39,208 nt of DNA from a virus, in IMG/VR virus record IMGVR_UViG_3300045988_042900, positions 1-39,208 of that record. One strand, given 5' to 3'. Both the position numbers and the translations under genes were made by a program. The notes under the pieces were generated by a model. The model ran no database searches. It was not told the DNA's origin and worked only from the letters and a program-made list of their open reading frames with translations. Positions within the stretch are counted from its first letter, which is position 1. Each line of letters opens with the position of its first letter. Shown piece after piece: positions 23,561-33,376 of the stretch.

Positions 23561-23684
23561 TAAGATCATCGAAGCAATCCAGGCAATTATCCAGCGCGGC
23601 AATGACGTGGAGATACGCCGGAAGGGCAACGGCTATGTCGTGCTAGAGGTAAAAAAGACAATCAAATATACGACTCCCGCGTAA
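23553..23684 (+). CDS. 43-aa hypothetical protein (DDKIIEAIQAIIQRGNDVEIRRKGNGYVVLEVKKTIKY...)
   Basis: The start is GTG, overlapping the previous gene's end. The translation looks protein-like. It is under 60 aa and so absent from the track. Confidence 0.4.
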   Translation: MDDKIIEAIQAIIQRGNDVEIRRKGNGYVVLEVKKTIKYTTPA

Positions 23685-23707
23685 TTGGGCGCGGGAAAGG
23701 GCAATAG

Positions 23708-23749
23708 GAGCCAACTACTAAGGATTTTTTAGTGGTTGGCTCTTTTTTA
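23708..23749 (+). terminator. Rho-independent terminator
   Basis: A 12-bp stem (GAGCCAACTACT/AGTGGTTGGCTC, one G-U pair) is followed by TTTTTTAT. Confidence 0.8.
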
Positions 23750-26830: not shown

Positions 26831-27412
26831 ATGAGCAAATTTACTGTGATCCCCGAGAACACATTTTCTGAGTTGCAGCTCAACGCGGGCGTGCTGCTTA
26901 ATAAGTTCACCCCGGCAACTGCCACCGCTCCTGCTGACGAGGACATCATCTGCGCGACTACAGGCGGCATTACCGTAAGCTGTACCCCGACATTTTCTGA
27001 CCTCGGCGAGGACGTCGACAACTGCCCCAAGAATACCAAGGAGCTCAAGCATCTTGACGGGTGGGAATGCAAGATGTCCACAACTGCACTGGGCACAAGC
27101 CCGGCAAACATTAAGCTCTCTCTCGGCTGCGCAGATGTTGATGGTACGGACACCACCAAGATTGTGCCACGAGTAGATTTGGCGCAGAGCGATTTCAGCG
27201 ACATCTGGTGGGTTGGCGACCGCGCAGATGGCGGCATGGTCGCGATCCAGGTCAAAAATGCGCTTTCCACTGGAGGTTTCTCCCTCAAAACCACCGACAA
27301 CGGAAAGGGCCAGATCACCTTGGAGCTCACCGGGCATGTATCCATCAGCAAGCAGAGCGAGGTGCCTATGGTATTTTACAGCGCCGCAGCTGCAACGGTC
27401 GACGGAGGTTAA
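26831..27412 (+). CDS. Major tail protein
   Basis: The RBS is AAGGAGGA. The gene lies directly upstream of the chaperone pair and the tape measure gene. Confidence 0.7.
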   Translation: MSKFTVIPENTFSELQLNAGVLLNKFTPATATAPADEDIICATTGGITVSCTPTFSDLGEDVDNCPKNTKELKHLDGWECKMSTTALGTSPANIKLSLGCADVDGTDTTKIVPRVDLAQSDFSDIWWVGDRADGGMVAIQVKNALSTGGFSLKTTDNGKGQITLELTGHVSISKQSEVPMVFYSAAAATVDGG

Positions 27413-27415
27413 ATC

Positions 27416-27799
27416 ATGAAACTGTCTGAGTATCGCGGTGATGATGCGCTGGAAGTCCTGGCGGAGTTGCTTGAGCCCGCCGTGGAAATCCTTGCTGATG
27501 CTGACATTGCCGCCGCGTGGCGGGACAAAAACCCCAATAAAACCAGAGGGCAGAAGCAGCTAAAAGCCGTGTCTATTGCTATTAAAAAGCACAAAGAAGC
27601 GGTGATTGCCATTCTCGCCGCGCTGGATCACGAGACCCCGGATGAGTACCGGGAGAAAATCAATGTTGTGACGCTGCCCAAAAAGCTGCTGGAAGTGCTC
27701 AACGACAAGGATCTGCGCAATTTTTTTACCTCGCAGGAGCAGACCAAGGGCGAACCCTCTGGCTCTGCTTCGGCGAGTACCGAGGTGCCCGGACAGTAA
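27416..27799 (+). CDS. Tail assembly chaperone (gpG analogue)
   Basis: It lies between the major tail protein and the tape measure gene, and contains a slippery site near its 3' end. Confidence 0.75.
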   Translation: MKLSEYRGDDALEVLAELLEPAVEILADADIAAAWRDKNPNKTRGQKQLKAVSIAIKKHKEAVIAILAALDHETPDEYREKINVVTLPKKLLEVLNDKDLRNFFTSQEQTKGEPSGSASASTEVPGQ

Positions 27800-28059
27800 A
27801 ATCGTTTCTGGGCTATGCCGCCGCGTGTTATCGCCGCGACTGCGATAGACTGCGGTATCAGTGCTATGTCACCGACACCATTAAGATGATCGCGGAAAAC
27901 ACGGCAAAATACGCTGGCGGTATGGCCCCATCTAAACGGTATGCTGATCTCGTCCACCCCGCGCCCGTTGAAACTCGCAGCGCTGGAGAAATAATTGACA
28001 ACATCTGCGCAAAACTAGACGCGATGGGAAAGGAGGATAGAGCTTTTGGATGTATTTGA
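27416..28059 (+). CDS. Tail assembly chaperone -1 frameshift product (gpGT analogue)
   Basis: I translated the -1 frame codon by codon: it is open from 27727 to the TGA at 28057-28059. There is no independent start or RBS for this part. Confidence 0.65.
27721..27727 (+). promoter_or_regulatory. Programmed -1 ribosomal frameshift slippery heptamer U_UUU_UUU
   Basis: The zero-frame codons are AAT TTT TTT ACC, giving an X_XXY_YYZ pattern in phase. Confidence 0.65.
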
Positions 28060-28542
28060 TCTTTGCGCCCGGATCACGTTGGAAACAGGCGAATACGAGA
28101 AATCTCTCAACGGAGCGCAATCTAAAACAGTCTCGTTTGGAGACGTGTTAAAAAATACATTTGGCAAAATCGCTAAGGCGGCCACGATTAAGAAAATTGC
28201 AGAGGCTGTATATGATGTAGGCAAGGCGGCTGTGTCTAGCTATGCCGACTATGAGCAGCTCGTGGGCGGAGTAGAAACGCTTTTTAAGGGCAGCGCATCT
28301 ATTGTCGAGGGATACGCGAAAACCGCTTACAAGACCGCTGGTCTGTCCGCCAATGAGTACATGGAAACGGTCACCTCCTTTTCTGCGTCTTTGTTGCAAA
28401 GCCTCGGCAATGATACCGCAAAAGCCGCCGAAAAGGCGGACATGGCGGTTACCGACATGGCCGATAACGCGAACAAAATGGGCACGTCTATGGAGGCCGT
28501 CCAGAATGCGTACCAGGGTTTTGCCAAACAAAACTACACGAT
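28046..28542 (+). CDS. Tape measure protein, exon 1
   Basis: AGGAGG sits 9 nt before the TTG at 28046. The exon ends ...QGFAKQNYT plus 2 nt. Confidence 0.75.
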
Positions 28543-28845
28543 AGACAATCTAATGTCCGCTGCGTGAGTGATTGCGCAGTGCGCGCGGGTTAACCTTACC
28601 AAGGGTGTGTCCGCTATTCGGATGCTAACGGGGAAACTCTAAGGGCAAAAGCCTATGACAATCCCGTGCCAAGCCTCAATAGAGGAAGGTGTAACGACTA
28701 TCGGCTCGTCACCGAGTACAGCGGCTATTGGTACGCCGTTGGAAATGCCCGCCAACTATTCCAGCAATAATGTTGGATATTTGGAATAGTTGAAGATATA
28801 GTCTAATCCCCTAAAAAATATCGGGAAACCGAGGGTATGCAAATG
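28543..28845 (+). mobile_element. Group I intron (ORF-less, 303 nt) in the tape measure gene
   Basis: Exon 1 ends in U and the intron ends in G. AGATATAGTC (28794-28803) is a J8/7-P7-like element. GACTAT (28696-701) pairs with ATAGTC (28798-803). Splicing restores ...NYT-M-LDNLKLGYGGTK... Confidence 0.75.
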
Positions 28846-31465
28846 GCTAGATAATCTCAAGCTGGGATACGGTGGAACCAAGACCGAGATGGAGCGGCTG
28901 CTTAAAGACGCAGAAGCGCTAAAAAAGAAGCAGGGCGAGGTTGCCCATTACAGCGTTGACAGCTATGCAGACATTGTCGATGCTATCCATGTCGTGCAGA
29001 CCGAGATGGGCGTTACCGGCACTACTGCGCTTGAAGCATCTGAGACAATCTCCGGCAGTATGGCGAGCGCCAAAGCATCCATTGGCAACCTGCTCACCGG
29101 TATGGTTGATACTGACCAGGATATTATTGCTTTGGGAGAGCAGACCGCCGGGGCAGTAGCTACGGCGTTTGAAAATGTCGCACCGGCTATTGCCAATTTT
29201 ATGACGGTCGGTGTTCGCGCAATTGGTGATGCGGTAGACCCAGCCAATAAAGTGTCCCGTGCACTCGGGGACATTGAGGCGGCTCAGGCGCGGGTGACGA
29301 GCTCCAACAATATCCTAGAGCTCGTCTCCAGGTATAGGGCACTGCAAGAGCAAGCAGAGAGCTCCGAAACATCGTCCAGTGAGCTGGCCAACATTGAGAA
29401 AGAGCTTACCTCAGTGAGAAACCAGCTGGCAACTGCTACCGGAAATGCAAAAATAGCGCAGTCCGAATCGAATGACGAACTTGCAGATGCAATCGAATAT
29501 GAAGAAGCGCTTGCACAGCGCGAGAAAGAACGCGCTCAGCTGCAGATGTATGAGGATGTCGCAAAGGGAGCAGCTGCATATGGGGAGTCATTACATGAGC
29601 TGTCTGTTGTTAGTGGAGAGCTTGCGGACGCTGAAAAGCAGTATTCCGATACCACCGAGAACAAGACGAAAAACGCTGCCCAGGAATACTCAAAACTGTC
29701 AAGCGAAATTGACGATCTTTCCAACAGCTTTTTTGACGGCGAAATTTCTGTTGATGAAATGCACACCGGGCTGGACGAGATTGCTGATAGTGTTTACAAG
29801 CTGACGGGCGAGAAGGTAGAATTTAGCGACATTTTAGCTGGCCAAGAGTATATCGACAATCTGGACCTTACATTTGACAATTTGGCGGATCGTACGATTG
29901 ATACTTATGAGGAAATGGACGAATTGCGCACCCGGCAGGACGATTTGACGGAGTCCACGGAATCCTACCAGAAAAAAGTCGCGAATCTCGTAGATGCCGG
30001 ATTACTTACAGCGGACGAAGCCGCCGGGTATCTCGGCATCACTGTGGATGAACTCAAAGACGTGCTGGATGCAACCGCAGAGTCTACAGACGATGTTGGC
30101 GAATCTGCCGATGACGCCGCAGAGGAACTTACAGACGAGCAAAAGGCCGCGAAAGACCTTAAAAAATCCTTGGCGGATATCGGCACCGAGGCTTACAACG
30201 CAATTGAATCAGGTGAAGACCTGCGGGACAAGTACGACGATCTAACCGGGCAGCTAGAAAGCCTAGACGGCGAGCTTGACGAAACCACGCTCAGCCTTGT
30301 AAATACCGCCCTGGAGACGCTAAATCTAGCGGCGACCAACCAGGAGCTTACGGACGGATATCCCGGTTTTGTCACTGCCGCTCAAAACGCCGGTGTATCT
30401 CTGTCTAATCTGTCTGCGTGGCTGATTGACAATGAGGTTACCGCAGAGCAGTGGGGGTCTCAGGTGTCCAGTGCTGTTGACGGCGTTATCAACAATTTTA
30501 CGGAGGTAAAGACGTCAACGGGCCAAAGCGTCGCTGAGATGAAATCGGCGCTGGAGAGCAACATTGCGGCGTACACGACATGGAACAGGGATATCGCGGA
30601 CTTAATGGCTGGAGCTGTTAAGAGTGGCGACCAAAGCAAAATCGCCTTTGTCCAGGCCCTACAGGATATGGGGATTGGAGCTGCTGCTCAGGTTGCTGCA
30701 ATGGCGGAGGACGTTGATGGGACGCTGGCCGAATTTGGGCCACTTTTTGCTGACGCTGCAGACCAAGGTATGCTGGAGGTCAAAAACAGCATCGAAGGAG
30801 GCACCGCGCCGTCCAAAGCTGCGGCGAAATCCTCGATGGAGGACGTCCAGGATGCAATGGAATCTATTGATTTTGCGGCAACCGGCAAGGACGCAATGTC
30901 TGATCTTGCTAGCGGCATTAGGCAAAAAACCGGAACGGCTACCTCAGCAGCCAAAAGCGTTGCAACCAGTGCAAAGTCCTCAGCTGGGGACGTAAGTTTT
31001 TATTCGGTCGGTTACAACATGGACTATGGAATGGCAAGCGGCATCTGGGGCGGCAAAAGCCTGGTTACTAGCGCTGCGCAAAGCGTGGCCCGAGCCGCTT
31101 ACAATGCCGCAAAGCGTGTCCTGGGCATTCATTCTCCGTCCACGGTATTTCGAGACGGGGTCGGTAAAATGATAACAGAGGGCATTTCCACCGGGATGAC
31201 CGCGCCGGACGTACTCCACGCCCTGGAGCTGGCATCAAGCGAGGTGTCCGACGCCGCTTACGACGGGATGACTGCACTGCCGTATGAGCTTGGCGTGGCC
31301 ACCGGCACCGAACGCTATGCAACGTCAGTTCGGGGCGGGAATGTAATCAACAATTACATCAACATTGATGGCACAAAATACACAGATGCAAACGAGTTGG
31401 CAGACGTGATCTCTGATGTGCTCGTGAGACGGTATAGGCGGGAGGTGGCAGCACTTGGCGGATAA
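28846..31465 (+). CDS. Tape measure protein, exon 2
   Basis: The frame is open from 28847 (LDNLKLGYGGTKTEMERLL...). The product is long and helical, as expected for a tape measure protein. The spliced product is 1038 aa. Confidence 0.8.
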
Positions 31466-32195
31466 CCCGTATTTTATCTACGACGGTGTGGACTCCCGCA
31501 CCCTCAAAATACAGATGCAGCGTGAAATCGTACTCGACGGGGCAAAGCCAAACGTTGAAAAAATCACGATCCCCGGCAGAAATGGAACGCTGGACTACTG
31601 GGATGGAACGTATGAAAACCGTGAGGCAGTTGCACGGTGCTTTATCCTTGACAACGATGCATCCGGGTATTTTGCACAGGCGCAGAAGTGGATGCAATCT
31701 CCGGTATACAAGCGGTTGGAGCTATCAAATGAGCCGGATGTGTATATGATGGCGACCGTTACAGACAGTGGAGACCGTGAAATCCTGCAAGGTGTTTTGG
31801 CCCCGTTTAAAATCAAATTTGATTGCAAGCCGCAAAAATACCTAAAAACCGGCGAGACTGCATTTGAGATCACAAATGGCGACACCTTGCATAATAGCTG
31901 GTTTGAGGCAAAGCCGCTAATCAGAATATATATAACTGGCGGCGGGGGAACTTCCGGAGCGTTAAAGGTTGGCAGCGCAACAGTCGTGCTCTCTGACGTT
32001 AGCTCTAATATTATGATTGACTGCGAGACGCAAAACGCATACTCAATAGGGCTGGGTGGCGCGATTGCCAATGCTAACAACAAGATACAGACGCTCAAGT
32101 TTCCGACGTTGCCGCCTGGGGACACAGAAATATCGTGGATTGGCGATATCTCAATCTCAAAAATGCAAATTGTACCTAGGTGGTGGAGACTATGA
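31455..32195 (+). CDS. Distal tail protein (Dit)
   Basis: The gene follows the tape measure gene. The N-terminal pattern is YDGVDSRTLKI...ITIPGRNG. The start is TTG and overlaps the tape measure gene's end. Confidence 0.65.
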   Translation: MADNPYFIYDGVDSRTLKIQMQREIVLDGAKPNVEKITIPGRNGTLDYWDGTYENREAVARCFILDNDASGYFAQAQKWMQSPVYKRLELSNEPDVYMMATVTDSGDREILQGVLAPFKIKFDCKPQKYLKTGETAFEITNGDTLHNSWFEAKPLIRIYITGGGGTSGALKVGSATVVLSDVSSNIMIDCETQNAYSIGLGGAIANANNKIQTLKFPTLPPGDTEISWIGDISISKMQIVPRWWRL

Positions 32196-33376
32196 GACCG
32201 ATTTTATACGACGAGACGGAAACGTCGTACTCCAAAAATGGGCTTGGTGTCCTGACCGATGCTATCAGTTGCGCAGTGACCCAGGAGCGGAATGGCTCCT
32301 ATGAGTTGGAGATGGAGTATCCAGTGCTTGGGATCCATTTTGATGACCTTAAATTACAGCGCATCATCCTGGCGAAACCAGATGAATCCAGCAGAAACCA
32401 GCCATTTAGGATCTATGACATATCCAAACCGCTCCTCGGAAACGTCACAGTAAACGCTCGGCACGTTGCATATGACCTCATGGGCATACCAGTCAAGCCG
32501 TTTAAGTCTACGTCGGCGCCCGCTGCGATGAAAGCTTTGAAGGACAATGCGGCAGCTGATTGCCCCTATACGTTTGAGACGGACAAAGAGACGGAGGCGA
32601 CGATGACTGTTAGCGTGCCAACGTCGATTTGGGAACTCTTGGGCGGTAGTGAGGGCGGGATATTGGACGTATACGGCGGCGAGTATGAGTTTGACCGATA
32701 CAAGGTCAAGCTACATAAAGCCCGTGGAAGCAACAATGGTGTTGTGATCCGCTACGGGAAAAATCTTGTCGATCTCACGCAGGAGGAATCCTGCGAGAAC
32801 GTGTATACAGGTGTATACCCGTATTGGACGGACACCGAGGGGGCGCTTGTACAGCTACCGGAATATGTGCTCACCGCCGAGGGAACCTACCCTGTAACGC
32901 GCATACTTCCTCTTGACCTAAGCGACGAGTGGGAAAATGCACCAACGGTAGAACAACTCCGGACGCGTGCCACTAAATATATGACGGATAACAAGATTGG
33001 CGTGCCTAGGGTGAGCTTAACAGTTGATTTTGTGCAAGATAGCCAAATTGAGCAGGTCGGTTTGTGCGACACGGTAACGATCTATTTTGAGACCCTCGGC
33101 GTATCCTCCACGGCAAAATGCGTGGCAGCAGAATATGATGTCCTACATGAGCGCTATAACAGTATTGACATTGGGTACGTCAAAGAGAGCTACCCAAGGA
33201 TTGTTGCAAATCACCAGCGTAAAATCAGTTCTACGGCAAGTAAGCGGGATGTGCAGAGGACATCGGCGAGCATCAGCGCCTCGACCAAAGCAGAGTTGAG
33301 CGGCTATGCCACTCAGACATACGTTACCCAGCAGATTCAGGCAGCGGTGGTATCGACATGGGAGGCGAGTTACTGA
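32192..33376 (+). CDS. Tail-associated protein (Tal / prophage tail endopeptidase N-domain family)
   Basis: The N-terminus reads MRPILYDETE...NGLGVLTDAISCAVTQERNGSYELEMEYP. The start overlaps the previous stop as ATGA. Confidence 0.65.
   Translation: MRPILYDETETSYSKNGLGVLTDAISCAVTQERNGSYELEMEYPVLGIHFDDLKLQRIILAKPDESSRNQPFRIYDISKPLLGNVTVNARHVAYDLMGIPVKPFKSTSAPAAMKALKDNAAADCPYTFETDKETEATMTVSVPTSIWELLGGSEGGILDVYGGEYEFDRYKVKLHKARGSNNGVVIRYGKNLVDLTQEESCENVYTGVYPYWTDTEGALVQLPEYVLTAEGTYPVTRILPLDLSDEWENAPTVEQLRTRATKYMTDNKIGVPRVSLTVDFVQDSQIEQVGLCDTVTIYFETLGVSSTAKCVAAEYDVLHERYNSIDIGYVKESYPRIVANHQRKISSTASKRDVQRTSASISASTKAELSGYATQTYVTQQIQAAVVSTWEASY

Follow-up and report, generated by a model that had tools for sequence, protein, structure and literature searches.

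A very probable IA2-like group I intron, lacking an endonuclease gene, in the tape-measure gene of a phage

The window analysed here is the full 39,208-nucleotide stretch of the viral record IMGVR_UViG_3300045988_042900, in which the major tail protein gene is followed by two small ORFs, the tape-measure protein (TMP) gene, Dit and a further tail protein gene. The TMP gene appears as two fragments of 173 and 858 amino acids. The upstream frame begins with a TTG codon at 28046, approximately 9 nt downstream from an AAGGAGG Shine-Dalgarno sequence, and, as a preliminary description made from the sequence had read it, runs to ...AYQGFAKQNYT and, if left unspliced, through IDNLMSAA to a TGA stop at 28565-28567. 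The second frame, open from before 28846, reads LDNLKLGYGGTKTEMERLLKDAE, and an ATG within it at 28889 opens the 858-aa ORF. The preliminary description held that the 303 nt in between are an ORF-less group I intron, and the resulting gene structure is as follows.

28046..28542, + strand: TMP exon 1, TTG start, 165 codons plus the AT of Met166 (ORF list, translation)
28543..28845, + strand: very probable group I intron, 303 nt, IA2-like, without a homing-endonuclease ORF (RF00028, covariation, same-site homologues, MFE)
28846..31465, + strand: TMP exon 2, beginning with the G of Met166, then LDNLKLGYGGTK..., stop codon included

When 28542 is joined to 28846, the outcome is an ORF of 3117 nt, 1038 codons and a stop, with the insertion point inside codon Met166 (between AT and G). 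The junction product is FAKQNYT-M-LDNLKLGYGG (spliced sequence FAKQNYTMLDNLKLGYGG), and the predicted ligated-exon RNA or its DNA copy would read ...AACTACACGAT followed directly by GCTAGATAATCTC... across the junction. The site lies within the most conserved motif of the TMP, NYTMLDNLKLGYGG, and an alignment to intron-less homologues runs without a break across exactly 28542/28846: the junction stretch is contiguous in 118 of the 120 best homologues (with an exact FAKQNYTMLDNL in 112), 76 of 80 viral TMP loci are contiguous over it, and thousands of homologues are a single protein across it. Where homologous TMP genes are interrupted, the interruption is the same intron at the same site and not a genuine division into two genes. 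Matches of the spliced protein to PHROG tape-measure families also span the junction (phrog_6900, residues 18-215, E 5.7e-76), although a Pfam search of the TMP N-terminus and exon 1 found no domain. At the nucleotide level, a megablast search with the TMP gene found nothing in the phage collection, and a metagenome scan for TMP relatives returned, among the matches listed, full-length identities of at most 68% and partial identities of at most 84%. Read from the sequence, the two apparent gene fragments are one predicted tape-measure protein of 1038 residues.

The boundary bases are those expected of a group I intron, with a T at 28542 and a G at 28845. The preliminary description had gone further in calling this the only in-frame junction that satisfies both rules, which is incorrect: more than 100 in-frame U/G pairs can be listed, for example 28542/28824, 28542/28833 and 28551/28845. 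The boundary rules are not unique; it is only the homologues that single out 28542/28845. Alternative splice junctions giving ...YTIDNLKLGYGG were considered and rejected, since each of them lacks a G in front of the 3′ site and would yield a product one residue short of the conserved motif.

Removal of the insert restores the host gene, and intron-less alleles exist. One is found in a contig, L416, that is 94.9% identical to window positions 27221-28539 and has an uninterrupted site reading AACTACACC-ATG-CTT-GAT-AAC-CT; it was found among viral contigs by back-translation of an odd C-terminus, with 1348 nt compared, and the empty-site sequence is AACTACACCATGCTTGATAACCT. The contig (IMGVR_UViG_3300045988_050559) has instead another insert, 12 nt further downstream.

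The Rfam group I model RF00028 matches the insert from end to end, covering model positions 1-253 of 253 at 28560-28825 with 48.1 bits and E-values of 2.8e-11 when 501 nt are searched and 2.2e-9 for the whole window. A scan of the whole window in Rfam gathering mode gave no match, and the hit appears only under E-value thresholds: the curated gathering cut-off for RF00028, which is an operational threshold and not a structural definition, is 50 bits, and the window copy falls 1.9 bits under it. Three ORF-less homologues at the same site (L312, L286 and L228) lie above the cut-off at 54.0, 53.0 and 52.9 bits, and a further contig, L207, gave scores of 49.4 and 57.9 bits. The low score of the window copy is due to a displaced P3 5′ strand that Rfam aligned with mismatches, placing its own P3 onto a region that contains two extra hairpins. 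The MFE z-score of the insert is -3.70, and an unconstrained MFE fold recovers the same helices, P3 included. The absence of an ORF from the insert is borne out for endonuclease-like ORFs; the only ORFs that overlap it encode 44 aa (28655-28789, + strand) and 41 aa (28756-28881, - strand), and neither is endonuclease-like.

A structure model was built on an alignment of 43 non-redundant same-site introns, less than 96% identical to one another and trimmed beforehand of endonuclease inserts. It comprises P1-P10, a P3/P7 pseudoknot, P7.1 and P7.2, for a total of 82 pairs in 17 helices, with the following elements in the window.

28540..28557, + strand: P1 hairpin, 4 bp, GAU of exon 1 and the first intron A (28540-43) with UGUC (28554-57); 98.8% of cells paired
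28548..28552, + strand: P10 guide AUCUA in the P1 loop, complementary to exon 2 UAGAU (28848-28852); 87.4% paired
28560..28579, + strand: P2, 8-bp hairpin with GUGA loop; 8/8 pairs changed on both sides; holds the in-frame TGA 28565-67
28585..28590, + strand: P3 5′ strand GCGGGU, pairing with GCCCGC 28747-28752 in a pseudoknot with P7; 100% paired (43 sequences)
28594..28622, + strand: two additional hairpins separating the P3 5′ strand from J3/4 (28594-97/28601-04 and 28610-13/28619-22)
28628..28690, + strand: P4-P6 domain, aligning to P4-P6 of RF00028; 85-100% paired, with covarying pairs in every helix
28628-33/28662-67, 28638-39/28657-58 and 28643-46/28651-54, + strand: P4, P5 and P5a
28668-70/28688-90 and 28674-77/28682-85, + strand: P6 and P6a
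28696..28700, + strand: P7 5′ strand GACUA, pairing with UAGUC 28799-28803; 100% paired; matches the RF00028 consensus GACUA...UAGUC
28701..28740, + strand: P7.1 (28701-04/28712-15) and P7.2 (28720-25/28735-40); 100% and 98.8% paired
28753..28792, + strand: P8, 10-bp stem (28753-62/28783-92) with a 20-nt loop; 8/10 pairs covary; extendable by A28763-U28782
28793..28803, + strand: J8/7 and P7 3′ strand, AAGAUAUAGUC, catalytic-core element; invariant in 43 sequences and equal to the RF00028 consensus
28808..28835, + strand: P9 (28808-10/28833-35) enclosing P9a (28821-24/28829-32, GAAA loop)
28845..28845, + strand: omega G, the last base of the intron at the 3′ splice site; G in 43/43 aligned homologues

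Over the 43 sequences the modelled pairs are 95.4% paired, compared with 35-44% in slid-partner controls, and 50 of the 82 carry compensatory changes on both sides. The model has a covariation score of 0.461 (0.065-0.10 in controls), with none of 500 shuffles reaching the observed values. The window copy forms all 82 as standard pairs and departs from columns conserved at 90% or more at only three positions, each common to an endonuclease-bearing relative, L251. In P3, three pairs covary, one of them through four types (CG:15, UA:11, GC:10, AU:7), while the extra hairpins, which are absent from the Rfam consensus, are 96.3% and 91.3% paired with covariation in 2/4 and 4/4 pairs. Covarying pairs make up 2/4 of P7.1, 6/6 of P7.2 and 4/4 of P9a, the last being 100% paired; P9 is invariant and hence silent, and P7 is so nearly invariant that it carries no covariation information, although it is consistent with the core. 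Two other pairings were discarded: a canonical P3 using the invariant GGUGUG just 5′ of hairpin C, whose partner varies without compensation, and a CUCG/CGAG form of P7.1, which is broken in L114-type sequences.

The splice sites are fixed by P1 and P10, as both covary with exon bases. The pairs of P1 are G28540-C28557, A28541-U28556, the 5′ splice-site wobble U28542-G28555 and A28543-U28554; the U-G is present in 42 of 43 sequences and the pair next to the splice site switches from A-U to U-A in seven, such that the weak 4-bp P1 suspected at the outset is real. At one P10 position the pairs are UA:34, GC:3, CG:2 and UG:2, and through this compensated variation the Leu codon of the exon and the guide in the intron vary in concert. 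A resemblance between the start of the intron and the start of exon 2 had also been pointed out; it is present because AUCUA 28548-52 complements UAGAU 28848-52 in an exon stretch that is nearly palindromic, and it is traced to P10. Introns of relatives that end in TTG or CGG instead of ATG keep the terminal G.

The core elements picked out by eye have largely found a place in this model. The motif AGATATAGTC, likened in the preliminary description to the J8/7-P7 element of the Tetrahymena intron, is indeed at 28794-28803 within the J8/7-P7 element, for which the Rfam consensus is AAGAUAUAGUC, and GACTAT at 28696-28701, put forward as a P7 candidate, includes the P7 strand that forms GACUA/UAGUC in every sequence, as in RF00028. 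Among the proposed helices, 28560-64/28575-79 lies within the 8-bp P2, 28628-33/28662-67 is P4 and the 10-bp helix corresponds to P8, but 28614-18/28678-82 had to be abandoned, as it joins two hairpin loops and can be drawn only in the window copy and its nearest relative.

The Michel-Westhof classification gives IA2 introns two further helices, P7.1 and P7.2, which follow the P7 5′ strand and precede the P3 3′ strand. The window copy has both, but it departs from the IA2 and Rfam-consensus arrangement in which the P3 5′ strand leads directly into J3/4 and P4: the hairpins at 28594-28604 and 28610-28622 separate its P3 5′ strand from UGCUAA-P4. For this reason the label IA2-like is preferred to canonical IA2. 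Taken together, the end-to-end RF00028 match, the covariation over 43 homologues and the homologues at the same site make it very probable that 28543-28845 is an ORF-less, IA2-like group I intron that splits the TMP gene, as the preliminary description had proposed; it is predicted to be spliced in vivo, and an RNA with this core would be expected to self-splice in a guanosine-dependent manner by two transesterifications.

Members of the family to which this intron belongs were counted in over 119 contigs of viral origin and in 22 from bacterial genomes. Essentially all examined copies occupy the same TMP site, with homologous same-site introns in more than 80 contigs. Most relatives hold in the P8 loop an ORF for a NUMOD4 + HNH_3 endonuclease, whose nearest solved relative is PDB 1U3E (E 7.8e-9), deposited as 'HNH homing endonuclease' and which we take to be I-HmuI. 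Among distinct inserts, the HNH ORF is forward in 64, reversed in 10 and missing from 25, and the 25 distinct ORF-less copies reside in otherwise intact TMP genes. The window copy belongs to the last class, with no endonuclease ORF in 28543-28845 and hence none of the coding content of a mobile, endonuclease-encoding group I intron. It is equivalent to the L251 intron minus a single 524-nt block (L251 positions 227-750, HNH gene included), with the scar in the P8 loop at 28768/28769; on either side of the gap the two are 98.2% (4/224 differ) and 100% (0/77 differ) identical. The ORF-less state is secondary and arose by a 524-nt deletion of the HNH homing-endonuclease gene. The flanking exons of the two are only 57-73% identical, and the contrast with 98-100% in the intron indicates horizontal transfer. 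About 10% of distinct copies have the HNH gene antisense to the intron, between perfectly complementary P8 arms, which suggests inversion by recombination across the P8 stem; an antisense HNH gene requires expression that is independent of the host transcript.

The 45-nt TMP motif NYTMLDNLKLGYGG contains at least three or four distinct insertion sites. Some relatives have tandem introns with a 22-nt or 31-nt mini-exon between them, and the occupied site differs between near-identical phages. An insert of about 225 nt at a neighbouring site in L415-L419 is a candidate intron; it has no Rfam match at E <= 1e-3. It is possible, but rather doubtful, that the family represents an undescribed structural and genomic variant, defined by the P3-J3/4 hairpins, the TMP insertion hotspot and the roughly 10% of copies with antisense HNH genes.

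The following pathway can be envisioned. The late-operon transcript would fold into the P1-P10 architecture, with the end of the 5′ exon paired to the internal guide (U28542-G28555); exogenous guanosine bound at P7 would attack the 5′ splice site, the start of exon 2 would pair with the neighbouring guide bases to form P10, and exchange at the terminal G28845 would ligate 28542 to 28846 to give one mRNA and a 1038-aa TMP. If splicing failed, translation would end at TGA 28565-67 after 173 residues, and since the host gene is essential, splicing stays under selection. The family presumably homes into its exact TMP site by means of the NUMOD4+HNH endonuclease encoded in the P8 loop. The window copy, having lost the gene, would still splice but would not mobilise itself, and could be passed on only through recombination or where a relative infecting the same cell provided the endonuclease in trans. 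With the endonuclease gone, one of the selective forces that favour retention of the element is lost.

Several other accounts of the interruption can be weighed against splicing. The insert might be a decayed remnant that no longer splices, in which case the TMP would be a pseudogene in a defective prophage or in an assembly of a dead phage. Deletion of the endonuclease gene is a step that precedes decay in the intron life-cycle model, and the Rfam score is slightly below the gathering cut-off; however, an RNA in decay would hardly retain every one of its modelled pairs, differ from an endonuclease-bearing relative at just 4 of 224 and 0 of 77 positions, and share with that relative all three of its departures from conserved columns. 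With ORF-less copies recurring in otherwise intact TMP genes and both exons open here for 1038 codons in total, decay is improbable. Still less probable is that there are two genuine TMP genes separated by a structured intergenic RNA, or by an intron-derived element reused, for example, in the regulation of translation. Separate CDSs are annotated in Lactococcus phage 38502, Str-PAP-1 and MissG1, and ATG 28889 would serve as the start of the downstream gene, yet homology restarts 14 codons ahead of that ATG and precisely at 28846, the break falls inside a codon, homologues by the thousand are single proteins over the junction, and P1 and P10 pair and covary with exon bases on both sides, which is sensible only for splicing.

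The gap might also be dealt with by the ribosome, through bypassing or frameshifting, or be an artefact of assembly. Translational bypassing of a coding gap does occur in phage T4 gene 60, but nothing specific supports it here, and a 303-nt gap with a covariation-supported group I fold argues against it; an assembly artefact is excluded because the same insert turns up in isolate genomes as well as in over 100 independent contigs. This last pair of explanations is the least probable of all, close to negligible, and RNA splicing of a group I intron is the reading we retain.

In practical terms, the 173-aa and 858-aa 'genes' should be annotated as one 1038-aa TMP, and the same correction is due in database entries for phage genomes where 'tapemeasure / HNH endonuclease / tapemeasure' appear as three CDSs. 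TMP length sets tail length, so fragments taken separately would mislead comparisons of tail length and gene content. The locus also illustrates the homing-endonuclease life cycle in gut phages, where the endonuclease gene can be found forward, reversed, degenerate or deleted. The current understanding of group I introns is unchanged by the window intron.

The kind of element is already known: a 2008 study described TMP group I introns, and the same-site intron is present in sequenced phages of Lactococcus and Streptococcus. Lactococcus phage 38502 (KX160204) and Streptococcus phage Str-PAP-1 (KP208803) have the identical site, with ...AAYTAYACGAT before the insert, G at its end and GTTRGATAA... 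after it, and their ribozymes are 76.8% and 70.5% identical to that of the window, respectively. In both, the TMP is split into two CDSs and the records list three separate CDSs with no intron annotated; unlike the ORF-less window copy, both introns keep an endonuclease gene ('HNH endonuclease' and 'endonuclease').

In prophage tape-measure genes of the Bacillus cereus group, three group I introns have been described, TMP-IVS1 and IVS2 (IA2) and IVS3 (IA1) (Tourasse & Kolsto 2008, PMC2504315). These share with the present intron a TMP host gene in Firmicute siphophage-type prophages, subclass IA and highly conserved targets; most lack a complete endonuclease gene, and related introns occupy several nearby sites with P1/IGS adapted to each (PMC2504315). 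The hosts differ, being Bacillus in that case and gut Clostridia-type phages here, and a search of Bacillus phage records gave no long nucleotide match, the 43 matching Bacillus records all ranking below the top 30 hits, of which the lowest cover only 14% of the query. The lysin-gene group I intron of Streptococcus thermophilus phages appears, from its title and citation, to offer a parallel in that it circulates both with an endonuclease ORF and as shorter ORF-deletion derivatives, in another host gene and another intron lineage (Foley et al. 2000, cited in PMC3952083). Two other papers, PMC7838156 and PMC4299906, mention introns solely with regard to other genes or within their reference lists.

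The endonuclease of the relatives, through its homology to PDB 1U3E, connects the family to the DNA-polymerase intron of Bacillus phage SPO1 with its I-HmuI. The core elements ACGGGG...AAUCCCGUGC, GACUAU, P7.1/P7.2 and GAUAUAGUC presumably resemble those of the IA2 ribozymes of phage T4 td and Staphylococcus phage Twort. Compared with SPO1, td and Twort, the host genes are different, and the present family places its endonuclease in the P8 loop and carries the two extra P3-J3/4 hairpins.

The tape-measure protein (TMP) gene of this phage is, judged by its neighbouring genes, part of a siphovirus-type tail module, and it is interrupted. The 5′ ORF starts at a TTG (28046) preceded by AAGGAGG, runs to ...AYQGFAKQNYT and, after eight further codons (IDNLMSAA), stops at a TGA (28565-67); about 300 nt downstream of this stop lies a second frame, LDNLKLGYGGTKTEMERLLKDAE. 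As the preliminary description stated, joining 28542 (T) to 28846, with G28845 the last base removed, yields one 1038-aa protein. The joined ORF is 3117 nt long, and the break falls inside the codon for Met166 (AT/G).

26831-27412: major tail protein
27416-28059: two small ORFs in the chaperone position
28046-28542 (+): TMP exon 1
28543-28845 (+): group I intron, 303 nt, ORF-less
28846-31465 (+): TMP exon 2
31455-32195: Dit
32180-33376: tail protein

The small ORFs in the tail assembly chaperone position encode 127 aa (27416-27799) and 57 aa (27886-28059), the latter overlapping the TMP start.

Tape-measure PHROGs match the spliced N-terminus across the junction (phrog_6900, residues 18-215, E 5.7e-76). 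It had been claimed that no other in-frame junction obeys the rule of a U before and a G at the end of the intron; more than 100 do, so the group I boundary rules alone do not pick 28542/28846, and it is the homologues that place it. When residues 1-319 of the spliced protein served as query, 7992 proteins among 8000 scored candidates matched at E <= 1e-5. The best 120 of the 7992 are mostly "tail tape measure" proteins of ~500 aa with 88-91% of the query covered in one piece; the motif F[AS]KQN[YF][TA]MLDNLKLGYGG is unbroken in 118 of these 120, FAKQNYTMLDNL is found exactly in 112, and 76 of 80 TMP loci from viral contigs are also contiguous across the junction. By this comparison, which the preliminary description had proposed as a check, 28542/28846 is the only junction that restores the most conserved motif of the TMP family. 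At 1038 aa the spliced protein (28046-31465) is about twice as long as the ~500 aa of most proteins sharing its N-terminal 300 residues, and the conserved intron target thus lies in a module common to TMPs that differ widely in length.

In gathering mode Rfam gives no hit anywhere in the window. With E-value thresholds, the covariance-model search also proposed at the outset aligns the whole of RF00028 (Group I catalytic intron; positions 1-253 of 253) to 28560-28825, though at 48.1 bits, under the gathering cut-off of 50 (E 2.8e-11 in 501 nt, 2.2e-9 in the whole window). That cut-off is exceeded by ORF-less homologues from the same site (54.0 bits in locus L312, 53.0 in L286 and 52.9 in L228). 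The window copy departs from the consensus in having two covariation-supported hairpins between the P3 5′ strand and UGCUAA-P4, and J3/4 and P4 do not directly follow the P3 5′ strand; the Rfam alignment sets its P3 on the second extra hairpin, with mismatches, and the sub-threshold score is explained by this displacement. P7.1 and P7.2 put the intron in subgroup IA2 of the Michel-Westhof scheme. Elsewhere in the window, 23672-23718 (+) gives a weak match to RF02990 (gut-2 RNA) over the full model length (34.9 bits against a cut-off of 39.8, E 7.5e-4).

The fold was modelled as 82 pairs on an alignment of 43 representatives, mutually <96% identical, including 12 nt of exon per side and with long P8-loop inserts trimmed.

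Helix model of the intron (paired strands, window coordinates)
P1: 28540-43 with 28554-57
P10: 28548-52 with 28848-52
P2: 28560-67 with 28572-79
P3: 28585-90 with 28747-52
Two extra hairpins: 28594-97 with 28601-04, and 28610-13 with 28619-22
P4: 28628-33 with 28662-67
P5: 28638-39 with 28657-58
P5a: 28643-46 with 28651-54
P6: 28668-70 with 28688-90
P6a: 28674-77 with 28682-85
P7: 28696-700 with 28799-803
P7.1: 28701-04 with 28712-15
P7.2: 28720-25 with 28735-40
P8: 28753-62 with 28783-92
P9: 28808-10 with 28833-35
P9a: 28821-24 with 28829-32

In the window copy each of the 82 pairs is a standard one. Over the 43 sequences 95.4% of cells are paired; sliding the 3′ partners by 1-3 columns lowers this to 35-44%. 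Both sides change at 50 of the 82 pairs (14-24 in the slid controls), covariation scores 0.461 (0.065-0.10 in the controls), and none of 500 shuffles reaches any observed measure. P3 pairs completely (100%), one of its positions showing four pair types, and every pair covaries in P2, P7.2 and P9a, while P7 and P9 are invariant, which is consistent with the model and carries no covariation information. An unconstrained minimum-free-energy fold of the 303 nt (z = -3.70) recovers P2, the long-range P3, both extra hairpins, P4-P6, P7.2, P8 and P9/P9a.

The 4-bp P1, previously called weak, gains from the comparison: the splice-site U-G is retained in 42 of 43 sequences, and the adjoining pair changes from A-U to U-A in seven. 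One P10 pair is seen as UA, GC, CG and UG, so that the exon Leu codon and the intron guide change in step. Through P1 and P10 the ribozyme is thus bound to either exon end, and the splice sites are fixed without recourse to the protein argument. The resemblance noted between the intron start (AGACAATCTA) and exon 2 (AGATAATCTC) is present, and is explained by P10, since intron AUCUA is the guide for a nearly palindromic exon 2 UAGAU. A helix formerly drawn at 28614-18/28678-82, connecting two hairpin loops, lacks conservation across the family and is unsupported. The initial observation is thus confirmed and its group I reading supported, with two corrections, to the uniqueness of the junction and to this helix. 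The complementarity itself, between the second extra hairpin loop (CUAUU, 28614-28618) and the P6a loop region (AAUAG, 28678-28682), occurs in the window copy and, less well, in locus L251, and may reflect either chance or a loop-loop contact specific to the lineage. U28591 and A28745 are likewise confined to these two copies, 41 of the 42 other sequences having G and G there; because the positions flank P3, the joint change may represent an extra pair or a tertiary contact.

Viral contigs scanned with the J8/7-P7 core and a degenerate P7-P7.1 pattern place the family in more than 119 contigs among the matches listed. The degenerate pattern also hits 22 bacterial genome contigs, mostly of gut Clostridia (Oscillospiraceae, Faecalibacterium, Gemmiger, Eubacteriales, Lachnospira, Peptostreptococcaceae), with one Companilactobacillus and one Staphylococcaceae MAG. 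Both exon flanks (...AAYTAYACGAT-intron-GYTNGAYAAY...) are found in 85 of the 142 core matches listed, and most of the remainder are introns at the same site ending ...TTG or ...CGG, not ...ATG. Lengths fall into classes of 269-388 nt and ~800-905 nt, plus one of 1178 nt. The long introns carry in the P8 loop an ORF of ~160-220 aa with NUMOD4 and HNH_3 domains, homologous (E 7.8e-9) to PDB 1U3E, deposited as "HNH homing endonuclease" and presumably I-HmuI of the Bacillus phage SPO1 intron. The HNH ORF is in forward orientation in 64 of the distinct inserts listed and reversed in 10; a further 25 inserts are ORF-less, and 3 long ones have no intact ORF. In forward copies the last codons (...KGWIFEKVEDIV, then stop) double as the 3′ strand of P8, J8/7 and the 3′ strand of P7.

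In the reverse copies (10 of 102 distinct inserts listed: L138, L210, L221, L226, L238, L251, L272, L294, L297, L309), an intact HNH ORF lies antisense to intron and host gene between perfectly complementary P8 arms, which suggests inversion across the P8 stem or re-invasion; such a gene would need its own promoter. The window copy's closest relatives are of this type. The nearest, L251, has an 827-nt intron whose positions 3-226 are 98.2% identical to 3-226 of the window intron and whose positions 751-827 are 100% identical to 227-303, so that the window copy is L251 minus one 524-nt block, the deletion junction (28768/28769) lying in the P8 loop. In the flanking exons of the two phages identity falls to 73% and 66% (150 nt) or 63% and 57% (495 nt); near-identical introns between diverged exons indicate that the intron moved between diverged phages. 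Against columns at least 90% conserved, the window copy shows no sign of decay, departing at three positions (T28591, A28745 and an extra C28840), all common to L251.

The site is empty in a close relative. The TMP homologue P0036, whose protein is 98% identical to exon 1 and ends ...YTMLDNL-NNMGARAA before its stop, comes from contig L416 (IMGVR_UViG_3300045988_050559, 39,062 bp). This contig shares 94.9% identity with window 27221-28539 and is uninterrupted across the intron site (AACTACACC ATG CTT GAT AAC CT). A different insert begins 12 nt further downstream, its first bases only being present (L416 1320-1348). In L415 (3695-3940), L417, L418 and L419 it is ~225 nt long, with boundaries ...AACCT/TAACAAYATGGGGGC ... 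CAAATG/CAAACTCGGG that obey the U/G rule and GACTG/CAGTC as a possible P7; Rfam at E <= 1e-3 does not recognise it, and it is a candidate intron. In many relatives the intron is followed by a second one, across a mini-exon of 22 or 31 nt: the second insert follows ...AAGCTGGGT in L207, L156, L210, L217, L230, L235, L236, L238, L266, L280, L288, L297, L304, L309 and L329, and ...GGTTACGGT in L212, L282 and L327. In L207 (1460-2035) Rfam scores both introns (49.4 and 57.9 bits). Given these second introns, the TMP motif NYTMLDNLKLGYGG is a hotspot where introns insert at three or more sites; in the window only the first is occupied.

By established group I chemistry, guanosine would initiate cleavage after U28542, exon 2 would dock through P10, and the exons would be ligated after G28845 into an mRNA for the 1038-aa protein, whereas unspliced RNA would give a 173-aa truncation. 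Having no endonuclease, the window copy cannot initiate homing; it could persist because precise splicing would be harmless, and could be mobilised by recombination or by the endonuclease of a co-infecting relative. A limited literature search found no report of experimental splicing for this family.

Group I introns in TMP genes are of a kind already described, and another would not surprise a specialist. The 2008 account (PMC2504315) describes them in Bacillus cereus-group prophages, at three sites, of subclasses IA1 and IA2, mostly without a complete endonuclease gene and including related introns fitted to neighbouring sites via P1, as well as one in Lactobacillus delbrueckii phage JCL1032. 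In S. thermophilus, lysin genes provide a known case of a phage group I intron with ORF-deletion derivatives (Foley et al. 2000, as cited in PMC3952083). The window copy helps annotation and illustrates the intron/endonuclease life cycle well. Lactococcus phage 38502 (KX160204) and Streptococcus phage Str-PAP-1 (KP208803) have a homologous intron at exactly its site, in records reading [quoted passage not shown] and similar. Str-PAP-1 has a second strong group I match (L414 454-740, 82.1 bits) ~0.8 kb upstream of its TMP intron, adjoining another CDS labelled "endonuclease"; neither intron is annotated. In Streptococcus phage MissG1 the site is empty; 22 nt downstream lies a different group I intron (Rfam 69.4 bits), labelled only as "ncRNA". 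Set against these known systems, the sole parts that might be new are the extra hairpins, the multi-site hotspot with tandem introns and the antisense endonuclease genes.
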